Shown here: one piece after another, positions 48,387-58,774 of the stretch
How positions within the stretch are numbered: position 1 is the stretch's first letter
Layout: each line of letters opens with the position of its first letter
Source: Microthyrium microscopicum
Taxonomy: Eukaryota
Assembly (NCBI GenBank): GCA_010405405.1
Contig: MU004232.1
Span: forward strand, 2,251,481-2,315,480
Direction: 5' to 3'
Length of the DNA: 64,000 nucleotides
Program-made: the position numbers and the translations under genes
The notes under the pieces: generated by a model
Seen by the model: only the letters and a program-made list of their open reading frames with translations
Databases searched by the model: none
Told to the model about the DNA's origin: nothing

Positions 48387-48969
48387 GCTGAAAAAGAATA
48401 TCGACAACTCATCTTGACTGTTGGAGTGGGAAATGATACTACTTATCACCTTTTTCGAATTTCGAGGTTTTGATGAAATTGCAAGTAGTGCGCCAAAATC
48501 TGTCTGTGTCGAGTTCAAACTATTCCTTTCTTCACGGCGTGATTTATACTTCACTGTGATCACTGAGCTTATTGTTGGTAAGATCTGTACTCTTTCTGAA
48601 CGACTAATCAGAAAGGCATCCATGAGCAACGAAGCAAGTCCGCCGGAAGCCCAATGCAGCCACGGTCAACCATGCCGATTTGCCTTTCCTAGAATAAATA
48701 GGTGTTCCTTAAGTATTTGAGGGATGCAGACAAAGTAATCGATTGTTTTGCACAGTTGAAGTGAGGAAGGCGCATTTGGTCTGTGGGTCGGGTGCAGTAC
48801 ATTTTCCGTGGAAGTGAGCATGCCTCTACTGATGACATCGCAATTGCTTTAGAGAAGAAAGCTGATAGCAACTTTACAAACAATAAGATACTTTCAGAGG
48901 ACTGGAATTACCCGGGATATAAGCAAGCAACATAACCACATTGACAGTACGCGCTGGAAAATGCTCTAG

Positions 48970-50376
48970 TTACGTGGTGGCTTTGGCCGCCTCGAGATCA
49001 GCAATTTGCTTGTTCTCGGCCTCAACATCAATTACGGATGGGACCTCCTCTTCTTGCGTGTTCTCTGGTTTTCGTGCGTAGCAGAAACACACTCGTTGAT
49101 AGAGTCGAATCTTCTGTGCCTTGAATTCAGCCCTCGAGTCGTCAATCAACGTTTGGACTTCTTCTTGTGTCTTGCCCAGGGCAGCTATGACTAGAGGTCC
49201 CGCGGCCTCGATCGCATCATAAAAGTCGAGATAGGTAAATCTTCCCAAAATCTTGTTCTTTTGATGCTTTGCCCACGGCCCAATAGGCCAATTGACCCAC
49301 TTCATATGGATATCAACGAACCCAGCTGCCTCTAGCCATTCTCTCCATTTCTCGGGAGCCTCAAAGTCGAGACCGATTCTTTTGCCTGCTTCTAACATAA
49401 CGTCTCCATAGTCACGAACTCTACTAATGGCTTCATCTTCAGGATTATTGCATCCCGTGGGAAAGGATACCTGTGACCATTAGCGTCGGGTCCAACTATG
49501 ATTCGTTCCGAAACTCTTACATCTTGCATTTCGAGATATCCGCCAGGGTTTAGATGGCTAACATTATGTCAGCAAATTGTGTTGTATCCAATGATAACTA
49601 CCTAGATACTTACTCAAAAGCTTGCTGTATGAATCCGGGCCAGTCTTTGAGAGCAGCAACCATTGCCCGCGAGTGTATAAAGTCGTACGTTTCTTCATGC
49701 ACCCAATCGGTTTCGACATTATCAACCCTGAAGCTACAGTTCACAGGTACGTATGCTGGTTGTATGGGGCTCAGATCCACGCCCAGAACCGAAGCGTTTG
49801 GATAATCATCAGCAAACTCAATAGTCCACTATGATCGTGTTAGATACGAAAGGGTAAAAACAACGGACGTACAATGCCTGTTCCACACCCAACATCAAGA
49901 ACACTTTGAACATCTTTCGGTATTGGTGCTAGAAATAATTTGCCATCCACCGATATGCGAAAAACATGGTGTTGAAGGTCAAGTCGGTCTTGTTCAGCTT
50001 CATCATTAGGAAGCATATATACTCCCGCGTCGTATCCCTGAGATAGTTAGTTCAGACTATAAAACCATGACCTGCGATCTCTACATGGTATCTTCGCCCA
50101 TCTTTGAATTGGTAAGCATATGCCGAACTCGCCAAAGATTCAGTTCGCCTGTACTGTGGTCAGTATTGAATGTATTTACCAGTGACTTGTAAATGTACCC
50201 TGTAGATTTGATATCACTGATTGCAGAATCGGCATCATCGCCCAGAGACGATGGACCAGACTAAAGGGGCAGTCAATTTCAATATGAAGCCTGACGAGAT
50301 TGGAGGTCTGTCATACATCCGTTTCTAACGGCGTCGCAGGTCGATTGTGCTCATGCTCGGTCTCCCGCGCAGACAT
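48970..50376 (-). CDS. LaeA-like (Methyltransf_23) SAM-dependent methyltransferase; about 7 exons
   Basis: Spliced GRRYH, LPNDEAEQDRLDLQHH, VLDVGCGTGIW, DLSPIQP, LNPGGYLEMQD and WPIGPW. Confidence 0.92.
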
Positions 50377-52774
50377 TTTGATGTGTGTCTGAAGTTATTG
50401 ATAGAATCCGTACCTAGCAACTACTGTCGTCAATTCTGTGTTCGTTACGCACGCTTCACCATGCCTTAACAATGAGCTACCACATTATCACATACCTGCG
50501 TGCGAGGTGAGCTCAATGAACGTTCTTGTTAATCCAAAACTATAGAACGATGACCGCAGTGCGCGAAGGCTGCTCAGCTGTCTCTAAAACAGTTGCACGT
50601 TAAACCCAAGGCGAGACTTCACAAACGAGAAAGATCGCAAAAGTTACAACTCCATCGGGGGGTATCCGATTCCCTTTATGTCATTGGCTCGCCTGTCCCG
50701 ATGGGGCGGGCCGGCTACCCGAAGCGTCGTACCACCGGACCTGACTTAGATCCTTCTATCTTTTGTTGTTCGCCAGGACTTTGACACCTCGACTTCATCG
50801 CGATTAACGACAGCTCATTAGGCGCTTTTGCCATCATCCAAACCGCTGCACATAAGGAGTGTGTACCGATGAGAAAGAATGCGATCTGCTTAAATGCTTG
50901 CGCCAGCCTCAGAACTCGACCTCAGTCACGCGTTTTCAATTTCAAGCAGTTCGTTCAAGCAAAAGTCGGGTTACGTCCGCCAGAAATGGGGTGCATATCG
51001 CCTGTGCCCCCAATAATCTGTGGACTTTTTCGGGATTTGCATGTTCAAAACATGCTATGCCCAGAAGAGCTGTGTCTCCCAAGTGTGTCCTGTAAGCGGA
51101 GAAAGCAGTCATTACTGGTGACAGACAGACAAATGGGGCTGTAGCACTTGTACAGCGAGAGGGTGCGTTTTGTTTTGGTTCAGGCGGGCGCTGAAGATGT
51201 GATCTGTTCATGGGATTATGGGACTGGGTTCGCAACACTTTTACATTTGATTGAGAATGAAGTAGAGGCGATAACTGGTAAAAGATTGAGCCTGTTGATT
51301 AGTATGTGCTCACGATTCTTTGACAAACTCATTCTGATGGTAAATCAAGTTTGAGGCAGATAGCCTGATACATACCATCTTAAAGCGGGAGCATATCTTT
51401 AGTCCATGAAACATGCCGTCTTCCTTTCCTAAGTATGTCTTTGAGCCTTCCTCATCTGCTAAGGTACCAAAGTGAACGAAGAAAATGACAGATGGACCTG
51501 CCGCCATTATCAAGGTGACTTAGTCAGGCTAGCGGTTCCTAGACCTAGATATGCGTATCAATGGGCGGTCTAGCTATTCCTTTGCAAGATATGCTGGCTC
51601 AGATACAATGCCCCAAGAAGAAACAAATTATAAAGCACAGTCAACATGTGTGATATAGCTGAATATATCATTACCAGAAACTGAAGCGACAAGATCAGCT
51701 CCACATCAGAGCAGTTTGATCGTAAGTTCCTACTACACGCCATTTCCTAAATTATCTGTCGTGTGGCTACGGTTTAAGAGTTCCAGATAAGCCATTGAAG
51801 ATTTGCGATAGACCCTGTTCCTATCATTTTGCTAATTTCATCTATAGAAGCGTTCATCTTCGCAGTAATCAAATATGTACCGAGAGGTTAGTCGTGGGTA
51901 CACCTGTGGGCATGGTTGGGTCATGAACTGGGAATCATGTGGACACCGCAAGCAGCCGGGACAAAAGCCTGTCCTTTCAAAGGGAGGATCGCGATAAGTA
52001 TGGTGACTATGGACAACGGGAACGAAAAGAGGAAGACGCGTCCCATGTGCGCACAGAAGAGAAAGGTTCAAATGTGAAGTGAAGACTCACAAGAAGGGTT
52101 AAGAACTTAAGATAGTGCCTGTGAAAAAAGCAGCCCATTGTAGCCTTACGAGTATTCGTGTCGCTAGACCGTCTTGTCTGGTTATCTAAATTTAGTTTGG
52201 AAATAGGGGGTGAAGGCCATTCAATACAATGTTGAATACAGCGGCAGATGGAATCTGTTAGCTCATTAAGTAGTAAGTAGTGTCTGCGATATGATCAGTG
52301 ATAGGGTCATCATAAGCTGTCAAGTGATAGGTAATGTATAAAATACTGCAAATAAGCGTCCAAATAGAGCGGCAAATGTAATTTATGGGTGAATTCAGCT
52401 TGGGGGATGACTGATAAACATTTACTAGGCGTAGACGATTTGCGTATAAAAGGATAGCTCACCCTGCCTCTGTTGTGAATGCAAAATAAGAACAAGAGAG
52501 GCATCAATTTCTGACCGACAGACTGATATCCAAGAAAAAGAATTTTGCTTGTGTAAAATTCTTTCGGCGCGATAGCCCAGTACGCAACGTCATCCAGGTC
52601 AATTTGAGTATCAGTAGCTCGGTCCTGACCTTCATTCGGCTCGATAAGATTGTAGTCCTACATTGAAAGTAAATCTATTGACGACATTTTCAATCTGACT
52701 GACAGAGACATTGAATCACCGTAGTTTGCGTTCTAGATAAGTACATAATCGGGTCTTCTGGTACTTCATTCAAA

Positions 52775-52978
52775 ATGTGCGATTACCAAGGAATAAGTTT
52801 CTCGTGCGATCATAAAGAAGTTAGGGTGCGGAAGGAGTGTCATGAACAACGTCACCTCAACCTCCAACTTGATGGAAAATCCAGAAAGCGATGCAGGCGT
52901 CCATTCAAAATGTCATATGGGGTAGCATATGTCGACCAGGCATGTCCCACGATATGTGGCGGACCACCCTGTAGCTAG
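52775..52978 (+). CDS. 67-aa Cys/His microprotein (MC-x8-CxH family), paralog A
   Basis: CAAA-ATG context; aligns with the ORF at 53827. Confidence 0.7.
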   Translation: MCDYQGISFSCDHKEVRVRKECHEQRHLNLQLDGKSRKRCRRPFKMSYGVAYVDQACPTICGGPPCS

Positions 52979-53826
52979 GTAAGTAATGAGCAAAAGCGGA
53001 AAGACCTTTGAAGTCGTATGGAGGCTTGTTTGAACCCATAGAAAAAATCTGGTTAATACATCTTGAATCAGATATCAGCAAGTCTTTGGCGCGGATTCGG
53101 TTGAACAAATCCTCGTCTTCAATTGTTGAAAGTCTATACCATCTTCCAAGGCTCTTATCCCTTTAAGGCCCAAATGAGTGAAGCATTCGAACAGATGCGT
53201 CGATTAAGTATGGTACGGTGTCTGCCAGACTATTTTTCAGAACAGTATGCCCATATCCCATGACTGCGTTTCGCGTAGCAATACCAACTCTCAGGATTGC
53301 GGAAATGAAACAAGCTCAAGATGTTAAGGCATAGCAAGTAAATGATGCTGATGGCCATTGAGCACGATTTGTAAGAGGATTGAGATTTTGTGGCTGGAAT
53401 GTTTTTGTCAAGGCCATTAAATCCTTGATTTGTTATAATAAGGTTAGGCTCAAGTAGCATGATACCTTGGTCGACGACAATACCGTGTCATGTTGATGGA
53501 TGGAGTTTCCAGGGCGTGCCACGCAGGCTACGAACTGGTTGCTTCATTGACCTTTATATCAATATTTGTGCATTATGCATGTGTAACCGTTGACGCTCTG
53601 GGTATAAATTCTCGTCCCCTTCCATCATTCCTGGGACCAGAACCCCAGAACAAAATCTTCCTGCGAACTATCGACGAAATTCAGATCTGTACTCTCAATA
53701 AAAACTTGCTGATATCTAGACAACATCTTACCAGTTAAAATAAACCGACAAGCTCTTCAGTACGTGTGCGTAGTTTCAAAATGCTATAAATATCGCTGAG
53801 AATGATCTAGTTCTCCATTTATCATA

Positions 53827-54039
53827 ATGTGCCAATACGACGGCTTCATATATGGCTGTGGCCATAAGAAACTTCGTCTACTCAAATATTGCCATAGTGC
53901 ACGAAACGCACCGGGTCATCAATGCTTCTCCCCGTGGCAGATGAAAGAAGAAATCCAACTTCCCAACGAGCGGTGTCCAGACTGTAGAACACAAGGACTG
54001 CCGCGTTTCATTTCAGATGACGCGCAGATGCAAAGCTAG
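53827..54039 (+). CDS. 70-aa Cys/His microprotein (MC-x8-CGH...CH...C...CxxC), paralog B
   Basis: TATAAA at 53603, 5'UTR intron 53760-53810, CATA-ATG context; aligns with the ORF at 52775. Confidence 0.8.
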   Translation: MCQYDGFIYGCGHKKLRLLKYCHSARNAPGHQCFSPWQMKEEIQLPNERCPDCRTQGLPRFISDDAQMQS

Positions 54040-56034: not shown

Positions 56035-56833
56035 ATGTCAGATCCATCAGCACACGGTGGCGCATCAGGCGAGACCAAGGGCAAATTCGAGCCCAAGCAG
56101 CCTGTTCAACTCAACCCACCAAAGGATGATCCTATCACGTTAGAGCATCTAGCAAAATGCGATGGTAGGTGCCCCTTGAAGAGCTTGGATATCTTAGTCA
56201 TTTTCAAAATCGAGAACGGGATATTTTGGCCGCGTTGGCTATGCGCTTTAGAGATCCAGTGACTAACGAGGCACAGGTGAACATGAAGGCTTTCCAACTT
56301 ATGTCGCTATCAAGGTACTTGCTTACACCTGCTCTCTGTTACAAATGCCTATATTTTCGCACAGGCAGCAACCCGATTTCTCTAGCTACTATCGTACCAC
56401 AAGTCTAACGTCAACCAGGGAACAATCTTCGACGTAACAGGAAACAAGTCCTACGAAAAAGGCGCAAGCTATCACGGTAATACAAGCCCCATTTCAGCTT
56501 TCTCCAGATCATTCTTTTACACATATCGTCCACTCAACTCTAGGCACTACTCCTTTTTCAAAATGTTTATGGATGAATGTGTGACACATGACTCGCTCTT
56601 CTTGCCTCATGATACCTTCAAAGGTGTGGAGTACTGACAAATCCTCAGTTTTCACAGGCAAAGATGCATCACGAGCTCTAGCACAATCTTCGCTCAAGGC
56701 AGAAGATTGCCGTCCGGATTGGGAGGATTTGAACGATGACCATAAGAAAGTGCTCAGTGATTGGTTCACGTTCTTCAGCAAGCGGTACAACATCGTTGGA
56801 AAGGTGGCACAGGAGGAAGGATCAAATCTTTGA
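56035..56833 (+). CDS. Small cytochrome b5-like heme/steroid-binding (MAPR-family) protein; introns about 56165-56276, 56314-56418 and 56477-56648
   Basis: Spliced LAKCDG..GFPTYVAIKGTIFDVT..SY...SYHVFTGKDASRALA...LSDWFTFFSKRYNIVG. Confidence 0.92.
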
Positions 56834-57123: not shown

Positions 57124-58774
57124 TCACTTTTCTTCCTTGAACGCATCTTCCACTTCTTTCGGCACCTCCTTCTTTCCATCCTTAACCGCCACCGATGATG
57201 ATTCACCCGCCTTGGAAGCCTGGGCTGGCTTAGTCACGCTAGACTCGCCAACTTTGGTATCCTCCTTGTCCGCATCCTTTTTGCTCTCAGACGCCTTACT
57301 GCCTGTCTTAGAAGAAGAATAGTCGTCGTCACTATCGCCCAAACTAAACGGATCATGATCATCCAGGCTCGTAGGCTCCACACTCGTCAACGGCTGCCAT
57401 TTGCCGCCTGCCTTACTACCCTGCGCCGGCGACGGTTTGCGGCCGATGCCCATCGGCGAGGACGAGGAAGAACCGGCCATTATGCCGGACTCCTGGCCGT
57501 CGCCTGATGTTTGGGTTTGCTTGAACAGATTGGGATTGGCGAGGGGACGTTGGCCTCGCGCTTGTCTTGCTGGGGGAGCTATATTTCTTGTTAGCGATCT
57601 TGTAATTATCGAAATGCACGAGGCAAAGGATATAATGTCATAATTTTCCTACAGGGACGGGTGATTTCGCGAAACTCATCACGAATCTGAAAGAAAGCAT
57701 GACGCGCAAAAGAAGAGAGGTACTTGAGCCTACTTTCGTCTTCACGAAGTTCCAGGCGGTGTCCAAAGTCGTCAGCAAGTACCTGTGGGTCAGCATCGTA
57801 GCGGTCATGTTCGCCAGAGCGACGAGAGCTTTCGGCGTTCTTGCGGATACCATGGATCTGGTTGGATTGCGAAGGGCCAAAGTCATTGCGTGGTGGTTGA
57901 GGGCGTCCACCGGGGCGGGGAATCGGATCCATGCTTTCGTCGCCGTCGAGTTTTTTCTGAAAGTCGCCCCACCACTTGTTGACGGTGCTCTTCGTCTCGT
58001 TGAAGGTCTTGGTGAGCTTCTCCTGAATTACTGGTAGATCGTCTATATTCGTTTAGCATTGGCTCCTCTCCAAGTAAGAACCGCGTACCGTCGAGGAAGC
58101 TATGCTCCTTTTCGCCATGCATGTCGTTTGCATTTAGTGTTGACTGGCCAGTCGAACGTCTAGGTAGTGGGGGGTTACCGCGACCACGAGAGCCAAAGCC
58201 CTCATATGAGCTCTCGTATTGTTCGGCTAGTTGTCTAGCATACAGCTCGTCCCGTTCGATCTGCGACATCGTCTTACGAGGCGGAGGTGGGGGAGCTGTC
58301 TCCTGGAAATCAGGATCGGACATGCCTAACTTGTTGATTAGCGATATGTATCTTTGAAATTCACGTTTTCATACTTAGCAGTGCGTTGAATGCAGGCTCA
58401 ACTTTTCCGCCACTAGCTACCAAGACGGCCTTGATAACCTTTGCATCCATGCTGGGAAATGCTTCGATCAATGTCTGCTCGGCCTGTGCTTTTGGGCTCA
58501 AGGGGCGCGGAGGCTTCGGTGGTGGGACGGGACCTTCATCATGTTCGTCCTGAAAGCTCACGCGCTTCTTGGGTGTTGATGAGCGTTCAGGGGCAGGAAG
58601 ATGAGCTTCTGGGACTTCGTCGTCTGCGTCGAATAGCGCGTCCGCTTCACGAACAGTTCGTGGCGACTCGGCGCCAGTTGAGGTTGCGGACTTGAGAGCG
58701 CTGGATGCAGGAGCCGTGGACTCAGTAGCAGCCTCGACCTTCTCGGCCGGCTTTTCAGATGCCTTGTCCGCCAT
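57124..58774 (-). CDS. CUE5: CUE-domain ubiquitin-binding protein, Cue5-like; 4 exons
   Basis: LIEAFPSMDAKVIKAVLVASGGKVEPAFNALL, DELYARQLA, YDADPQVLADDF and KWQPLTSVEP. Confidence 0.88.

Follow-up and report, generated by a model that had tools for sequence, protein, structure and literature searches.

Paired reading frames and the family of B

The subject of this work is a pair of very small open reading frames (ORFs), A and B, in a stretch of 64,000 nucleotides of Microthyrium microscopicum (contig MU004232.1, positions 2,251,481 to 2,315,480; henceforth the window). Both translate to Cys- and His-containing microproteins on the forward strand, and downstream on that strand lies the gene of a b5-like, putatively heme-binding protein. 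The features on which the argument turns are the following:

52669–52705, + strand: candidate intron in the 5′ untranslated region (5′UTR) of A, 37 nt, GTAAAT...CTGAC..CAG, proposed from sequence only in a part where RNA contigs are absent
52775–52978, + strand: ORF A, 67 aa, read here as a probable lineage-specific tandem duplicate that diverged fast
53603–53608, + strand: TATAAA, a putative promoter element 48 bp 5′ of the first transcribed base seen
53651–53826, + strand: 5′ leader of B, comprising exon 53651–53759, intron 53760–53810 (51 nt, GT..AG) and an exon from 53811
53827–54039, + strand: ORF B, 70 aa, a canonical family member and, through its b5-like neighbour, the positional orthologue
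56035–56833, + strand: gene for a b5-like (putative MAPR/Dap-type heme-binding) protein, four exons, 136 aa, from RNA joints and the spliced frame

The first-pass annotation had described A and B as a co-oriented pair about 1 kb apart, and so they are: the starts are separated by 1052 bp. Their paralogy is borne out by BLASTP (34.7 bits, E 2e-9, identities 17/58), which places the proposed Cys/His pattern in register between the two. Conservation at the level of protein rather than DNA, likewise proposed, is evident in the first 27 codons, where 44/81 bases and 12/27 residues are identical and the synonymous difference is 0.89 (saturated) against a nonsynonymous difference of 0.36. The flanks of A and B show no similarity by blastn, and no DNA-level repeat structure of a tandem unit was seen around them. 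An A stands at position −3 before both start codons, as had been noted, and on reading of the sequences neither N-terminus is hydrophobic, in agreement with the suggested lack of a signal peptide. Also common to the two are P36 and M39, residues seldom found in the family defined below (P36 occurs in 6/142 aligned rows).

Evidence of transcription comes from the RNA contigs of one public run carrying the same species label, in which neighbouring genes show GT..AG or CT..AC joints. At B a contig covers 53651–53759 and 53811–53841, with adaptor ends at 53651 and 53841, and extends 15 bases inside the coding sequence. The TATA box and the canonical 5′UTR intron predicted for B are both present, the first as TATAAA at 53603, the second as a splice joint (53759→53811) in this contig. 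The 3′ end of the intron lies 16 nt upstream of the ATG; the only two upstream ATGs are both within it, so that splicing removes them and leaves a leader of 125 nt that is ATG-free. In the spacer between A and B (53289–53573) two 151-base contigs from another organism's run align with one mismatch each, one of them ending in 48 loose bases at 53289.

Relatives of the pair are numerous. A profile made from A and B was searched against 1.84 billion representative sequences at E up to 1e-3 and matched 27 proteins, 25 of which we judged, by reading, to be true relatives; P0004 (488 aa) and P0007 (402 aa) are tandem-repeat proteins that scored through repeated short Cys/His-like stretches and were set aside as artefacts. 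The 27-sequence profile in turn returned 119 protein clusters, all of them free of Pfam domains. NCBI lists about 64 (counted by eye) under hypothetical-protein names, so annotation does not generally miss the family, contrary to what had been expected of size filters: it is undescribed, not overlooked. The UniRef label ‘Cyanovirin-N domain-containing’ on one cluster was taken to be a cluster-label artefact. The named organisms we take to be almost all Sordariomycetes, with Melanomma pulvis-pyrius presumably a Dothideomycete.

We built a hidden Markov model (HMM) of the family from 140 relatives, leaving out A and B. B matches it over HMM positions 1–55 (E 1e-25, 88.6 bits), has nearest relatives at 55–56% identity, and possesses all nine Cys/His positions of the family together with R26 and the Met1-Cys2 start. 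Homologues that keep the Cys/His pattern, for which the first-pass annotation had suggested a search, are thus found in quantity. In the 142-row alignment the counts are M1 140, C2 140, C11 141, C22 142, H23 142, A25 141, R26 142, H31 140, C33 141, C50 137 and C53 136; position 13 is His in 104 rows and Cys in 35. The nine near-invariant Cys/His positions are accordingly C2, C11, H/C13, C22, H23, H31, C33, C50 and C53. The family core is about 55 aa long and begins at Met1-Cys2, with the protein start exactly at M1 in 109/142 rows; the rows with longer N-termini retain that Met and so are probably over-extended gene models. A search among longer proteins gave no credible fused forms of the domain: its single longer match, P0143 (592 aa, domain at the C-terminal end), looks like a poor gene model. 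Among the related metagenome loci introduced below, a group (L019–L043; e.g., L022:1078–1347 and L039:4854–5222) has reading frames in which an in-frame stretch separates Met-Cys-Gln from the conserved hairpin; to judge from the frame, an intron may follow codon 3, one that the window's B does not have.

The earlier statement that no named function is known for such proteins stands, since no characterized family matches in Pfam, PDB profile, fold or motif-string literature searches. Pfam gave no match above cut-off on A, on B, on a 40-aa ORF upstream of A (described below) or across the 27 members; B comes closest to PF23470, at E 0.2 and 11.9 bits where the cut-off is 26, and Cathelicidin matches 10/27 members weakly (best E 0.002). 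A PDB sequence profile search gave 0 matches at E up to 10, a word-index search with B alone gave zero candidates, and the ESM Atlas returned unnamed Ascomycota clusters only, with scores of 0.93 for B and 0.86 for A. Literature searches on family locus tags, motif strings and keywords, which covered text other than supplementary tables, found no description.

Selection on the core was measured over the first 47 codons of 38 distinct core DNAs from the metagenome loci. Close pairs have synonymous to nonsynonymous changes of 8:1, 12.5:1.5, 9:3, 6:3 and 3:0, that is, ratios of nonsynonymous to synonymous rates (dN/dS) of 0–0.16: purifying selection, and not the value near 1 that had been named as a sign against the family. 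The median over 120 pairs with dS of 0.1–1.5 is 0.32. With its transcript, its full-length match and this constraint, B is very probably a real conserved gene.

The b5-like neighbour

The gene neighbourhood was surveyed in 80 related metagenome loci. A homologue of the b5-like gene lies directly beside the microprotein gene in 51 of them, and in 22 of the 23 loci whose downstream flank is 2.7 kb or longer; L059 alone departs from this. When the microprotein cores are clustered at 90%, 22 of 28 lineages have the neighbour; five of the other six have a downstream flank of 344–1212 bp, the sixth again being L059. The first-pass annotation had treated the b5 gene as a mere boundary of the interval, but it is the conserved neighbour of the family. 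The pair is convergent in 47 loci, in 2 the b5-like gene is downstream on the same strand, and in 2 it is upstream; the gaps range from 200 to ~2600 bp in the 49 loci with the gene downstream and are 1.7 kb (L008) and 4.0 kb (L046) where it is upstream. The window has the same-strand form, with the b5-like gene 1999 bp 3′ of B, and this adjacency points to B as the positional orthologue.

The putative b5-like character of the neighbour is suggested by an exon piece of the L038 homologue, which matches 1j03_A (a plant ‘putative steroid binding protein’) and 1t0g_A (b5-domain) in PDB at E 2e-4; a Pfam scan of the gene as single exon pieces, rather than as the spliced protein, gave no score. In the window one RNA contig (56648–57734, depth 1308) extends from the final b5-like exon (+ strand) into a gene on the − strand with a CT..AC intron at 57579–57733, and the 3′ ends of these two convergent genes appear to overlap or abut. 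The depth of the contig at B is 3.7, which indicates that B and the b5-like gene are unequally expressed in that sample.

The b5-like protein, or the heme/P450 pathway in which it takes part, is the leading candidate for a functional partner, and we advance it tentatively, at less than even odds. The alternative that weighs most against it accepts the zinc-braced module as real and takes the b5-like adjacency to be inherited synteny, the true partner lying elsewhere, for example in ribosome biogenesis. Other genes do accompany the microprotein gene. A Nop4-like gene with three RNA recognition motifs stands 0.9–3.3 kb upstream, on the same strand, in 20 loci (within L001–L043 and L063; examples are L002:2578–5124 and L011:2292–4517), matching PDB 9qjc_B at E 3.3e-108, and an arginase-family gene is also near, on a side that varies between loci. 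With these two neighbours the whole block could be a conserved syntenic island, and short convergent gaps are hard to break. Where the upstream flank exceeds 3 kb, the Nop4-like gene is present in 18/18 type I loci but in none of the 12 type II loci, and the window lacks it too, whereas the b5-like adjacency is kept in both subfamilies and through three arrangements. Of the two linkages the b5-like one accordingly reaches deeper and is more general, and we regard synteny without function as somewhat unlikely. Between loci the identity of the Nop4-like protein drops to ~50%, yet the block that it forms with the b5-like and arginase-family genes is conserved. A complex prediction for the L011 Nop4-like protein and its microprotein scored 0.00 and was uninformative.

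Predicted fold and putative metal ligands

The AlphaFold2 model of B, built on the 142-row alignment, has a pLDDT (predicted local distance difference test) of 84.3 and a pTM (predicted template modelling score) of 0.62. Its elements are strands at 3–9 and 14–20, a helix at 23–27, a strand at 38–45 and a helix at 51–55: the ~55-residue domain would thus consist of a β-hairpin followed by a short helix, one more strand and another short helix. The structural search with Foldseek that had been suggested as a check gave no clear PDB match for this model, with nothing at E up to 1e-3 and a best E of 0.78. VIA-align against 48,161 chains gave Z of at least 2 for 3 chains (best Z 2.6), a second look with the same program gave BofC at Z 3.0 and Zur at Z 2.4, and a BFVD fold search returned no match. 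A weak or missing match of a predicted model is no proof of a new fold.

The first-pass annotation had proposed that eight conserved Cys/His residues could bind two Zn ions. The ligand-like character of the pattern stands, and the family keeps nine such positions. Two observations show the behaviour expected of metal ligands: the exchange of H13 for Cys and, in certain divergent copies (below), the simultaneous disappearance of H23 and H31 where a CxxC has been gained. We consider it likely that the Cys/His set binds metal. Judged from the pattern, nine positions would suffice for two tetrahedral metal sites, with zinc the most likely occupant. In the first site the C11-x-H13 knuckle at the hairpin turn would be tied to C50-x2-C53 at the start of the last helix; in the second the open end of the hairpin (C2, C22/H23) would be tied to the H31-x-C33 loop. 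Use of C2 by the second site would account for the domain having to begin at residue 2. The invariant block C22-H23-x-A-R-N-D-P may then form an exposed binding surface, and the protein would act as a zinc-braced binding module and not as an enzyme. A Cys-Pro heme-regulatory motif was considered and rejected, P51 being present in just 8/142 rows.

Iron is a different candidate for the same residues. Were the Cys/His set to hold iron or an iron–sulfur cluster, the protein could be a rubredoxin- or Rieske-like carrier, or a redox sensor for the heme protein next door; the CxH and CxxC knuckles, three conserved His, the heme-protein neighbour and a weak Pfam match of B residues 39–56 to a rubredoxin-like zinc ribbon (E 0.2) are in keeping with this. 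No significant rubredoxin, Rieske or CDGSH match was obtained by sequence or by fold, and exchange of a single His ligand for Cys is what structural zinc sites typically show. We think iron improbable.

Duplicates, overall reading and known systems

A and B had been presented as an equivalent pair, and in this respect the earlier picture changes: B is canonical, while A fits the family only in the N-terminal hairpin. Against the family HMM A scores E 1.9e-6 (27 bits) over positions 1–26 only; it is a homologue of the family, but it neither matches the profile at full length nor has the nine ligands. When A is placed first in a MAFFT alignment it aligns across the whole core, with a 7-residue insert. 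In a tree of 161 rows, in which B was entered twice, A and B fall in a 5-row clade (SH-aLRT, the Shimodaira–Hasegawa-like approximate likelihood ratio test, 97) and B is the row nearest to A by path; the end branch of A is 7.67 against a median of 0.12, and A joins a second long branch, P0012, a placement on which the tool issued a warning. The AlphaFold2 model of A has the strand and helix order of B. No RNA contig lies over A, which, contigs being what they are, is evidence in neither direction.

We suggest that in this lineage a B-like gene was duplicated in tandem to give A, which would then have diverged very fast. A may be decaying or taking on a new role; that A, taken alone, is a non-coding or dead relic is a possibility of somewhat less than even weight. 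Repeat-induced point (RIP) mutation was considered as the source of the divergence and rejected, the composite RIP index being negative across 48–58 kb.

Further duplicates, in the window and elsewhere, bear on A. When the N-terminal pattern of the family was sought in six frames of 474,670 bases, 59 of 60 matches fell inside family HMM hits. The sole match outside them is an ORF ~900 bp upstream of A, which is listed here with the other transcribed features on that side of the pair:

48911–50528, − strand: methyltransferase gene, with a weak Methyltransf_23 match on one exon
50798–52216, + strand: spliced RNA contig, intron 51722–51847 (GT..AG), depth 72.8, with no long ORF; holds the 40-aa ORF
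51875–51997, + strand: 40-aa ORF with M1, Y9, C11, G12, H13 and C22 in family register

The 40-aa ORF gives no match to the family HMM and an hhalign probability of 7% over 7 columns; going by its residues in register, it may be a third, degenerate copy. It sits in exon 2 of the RNA contig 50798–52216. That transcript begins ~270 bp away from where the oppositely oriented methyltransferase transcript has its 5′ end; no ORF in it exceeds 91 aa, and it may be non-coding or else carry small ORFs. A and B are therefore not the only transcribed units of the interval, and the statement that they are its only credible genes is not confirmed. The methyltransferase gene itself has seven introns of 44–75 nt in one RNA contig (depth 612).

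Outside the window, loci L011–L014 hold a canonical copy and a divergent copy ~970 bp downstream. The divergent partner (L011:6982–7161, L012:6801–6980 and the equivalents in L013 and L014) sits between the canonical gene and the b5-like gene. In L011 and L012 it keeps C2, C11, H13, C22, C33, C50 and C53, has lost H23 and H31 jointly and has gained a C-terminal CxxC, a pattern that, as read from the residues, could be a compensatory ligand exchange. A second tandem copy at L062:2213–2434 lacks Cys2 and Cys11 and looks like a decaying duplicate; this loss of ligands points to birth and death of duplicates.

That A and B are both functional, as a heterodimer or with divided roles, draws on several of these observations: A keeps an open frame of 67 codons, 7/9 ligand positions and the same predicted strand order, canonical and divergent tandem pairs recur in L011–L014, and over its first 32 residues A resembles a divergent partner of the L011–L014 type (E 3e-6). 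Set against these are the restriction of its HMM match to positions 1–26, a branch ~60 times the median, the lack of A-like relatives in the A+B profile search and the ESM Atlas, and the plain loss of ligands in the L062 tandem copy. A two-microprotein system is accordingly doubtful at best.

Two further explanations fare worse. The proteins are small and Cys-rich, and genes of the Methyltransf_23, Lactamase_B (metallo-β-lactamase-fold) and ABC transporter families adjoin them in the window, so one might think of a secreted Cys-rich effector or antimicrobial, a metallothionein-like buffer or a peptide precursor of a secondary-metabolite cluster. On reading, the N-termini are not hydrophobic and the family members open in a polar hairpin that begins Met-Cys; B, with Cys at 7 of its 70 positions, many aromatics and a defined predicted fold, does not suit a metallothionein; and the neighbours conserved across the 80 loci are the b5-like and Nop4-like genes, while 40 long ORFs in the flanks of 24/80 loci include no methyltransferase, Lactamase_B or ABC transporter family. 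We regard this whole group as very improbable. Least probable of all is that neither ORF makes protein, both being chance ORFs or dead relics: A has no RNA contig and B a single one of low depth, but B has a full-length family match, purifying selection, an intact start context and an ATG-free spliced leader.

Taken together, the analyses favor, with fair but not full confidence, the view that B is a transcribed gene for a small intracellular metal-binding protein, one of an undescribed family widespread in filamentous ascomycetes, which is retained beside a soluble b5-like (MAPR/Dap-type) gene in nearly all sampled lineages. Several points weigh against it. The RNA of B is one short contig of depth 3.7, compared with 1308 for the b5-like gene. 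The assignment of two sites follows the order of secondary-structure elements rather than model coordinates, and metal binding is a prediction. Across the family the median net charge of the core is 0, which gives no pointer to nucleic-acid binding, so that a role of this kind argued from charge is unsupported. Values of dN/dS exceed 0.5 in 21/120 pairs, with a maximum of 1.04; these are distant pairs, and we attribute the values to saturated or codon-biased synonymous sites. L059 has no b5-like gene in 5.8 kb of downstream flank, and at convergent gaps of 200–600 bp adjacency may persist passively. A lacks the near-invariant H31 (Lys), A25 (Gln) and N27 (His), its CxxC is CxxxC, its model reaches only a moderate pLDDT of 69.1, and no RNA contig lies over the gene.

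A bolder form of the same view would make the microprotein and a soluble DapB-type protein a two-gene module, in which a new two-metal mini-fold that needs its N-terminal Cys binds or senses the heme carrier and so tunes the supply of heme to sterol P450 enzymes; we hold this to be unlikely, and offer it as speculation. If the more general view is true, a family of ~55 residues is under strong purifying selection in at least two classes of filamentous fungi, many of them plant pathogens, while having no name, Pfam model, solved relative or paper that we could find, and a predicted fold with no solved match. The near-constant linkage to a Dap/MAPR-type gene would then be a concrete handle on function, and one of some practical interest, as heme delivery to Erg11 and Erg5 bears on antifungal susceptibility; the locus would also illustrate the birth and death of microprotein duplicates, one tandem copy diverging ~60-fold faster than its parent. 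What is new is an uncharacterized small protein, predicted to bind metal, whose modelled fold is unmatched and whose gene has a notably conserved partner; what was already known is a set of hypothetical proteins in the databases.

Metallothioneins have a very high Cys content, few aromatics and no regular secondary structure. B differs on each count: seven of its 70 residues are Cys, it contains several aromatics (Tyr, Phe, Trp), and its model shows three strands and two helices. Among the weak structural matches just one kind of metal-site fold recurs, that of the C-terminal Zn(Cys)4 dimerization domain of Fur/Zur/PerR (2fe3, 4mtd), at Z 2.1–2.4 and a root-mean-square deviation of 8.2 Å over 49–50 residues, below the level of a shared fold.

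Small zinc proteins are known from the archaeon Haloferax volcanii as C(P)XCG zinc-finger micro-proteins (PMC11241148, PMC10716476). B resembles such proteins in being stand-alone, shorter than 70–90 aa and expected to need Cys/His-bound zinc for its fold; it is unlike zinc-finger and zinc-ribbon microproteins in lacking a sequence or fold match and in having nine positions, probably two ions and an N-terminal start within the set. The neighbour may be compared with the Dap proteins of A. fumigatus (DapA, DapB and DapC), above all with DapB, a b5-like heme-binding protein of 127 aa with no transmembrane segment; it lowers the activity of Erg5 and Erg11 through heme depletion, and in Aspergillus the susceptibility to azoles is set by this pathway of supplying heme to sterol P450 enzymes (PMC4791848). 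The likeness of the window's b5-like protein to DapB is one of size (136 vs 127 aa) and of having no evident transmembrane segment.

The closest comparison is with the unnamed Pezizomycotina family itself, represented by K505DRAFT_250649 of Melanomma pulvis-pyrius, GLRG_04280 of Colletotrichum graminicola and FOBCDRAFT_223142 of Fusarium oxysporum. A has the N-terminal half alone in common with these proteins. B departs from most members in having S24, A28 and P36-W37 where others have F, D and V-K, and it has in common with them the whole 55-residue core, the nine Cys/His positions and the Met-Cys start.

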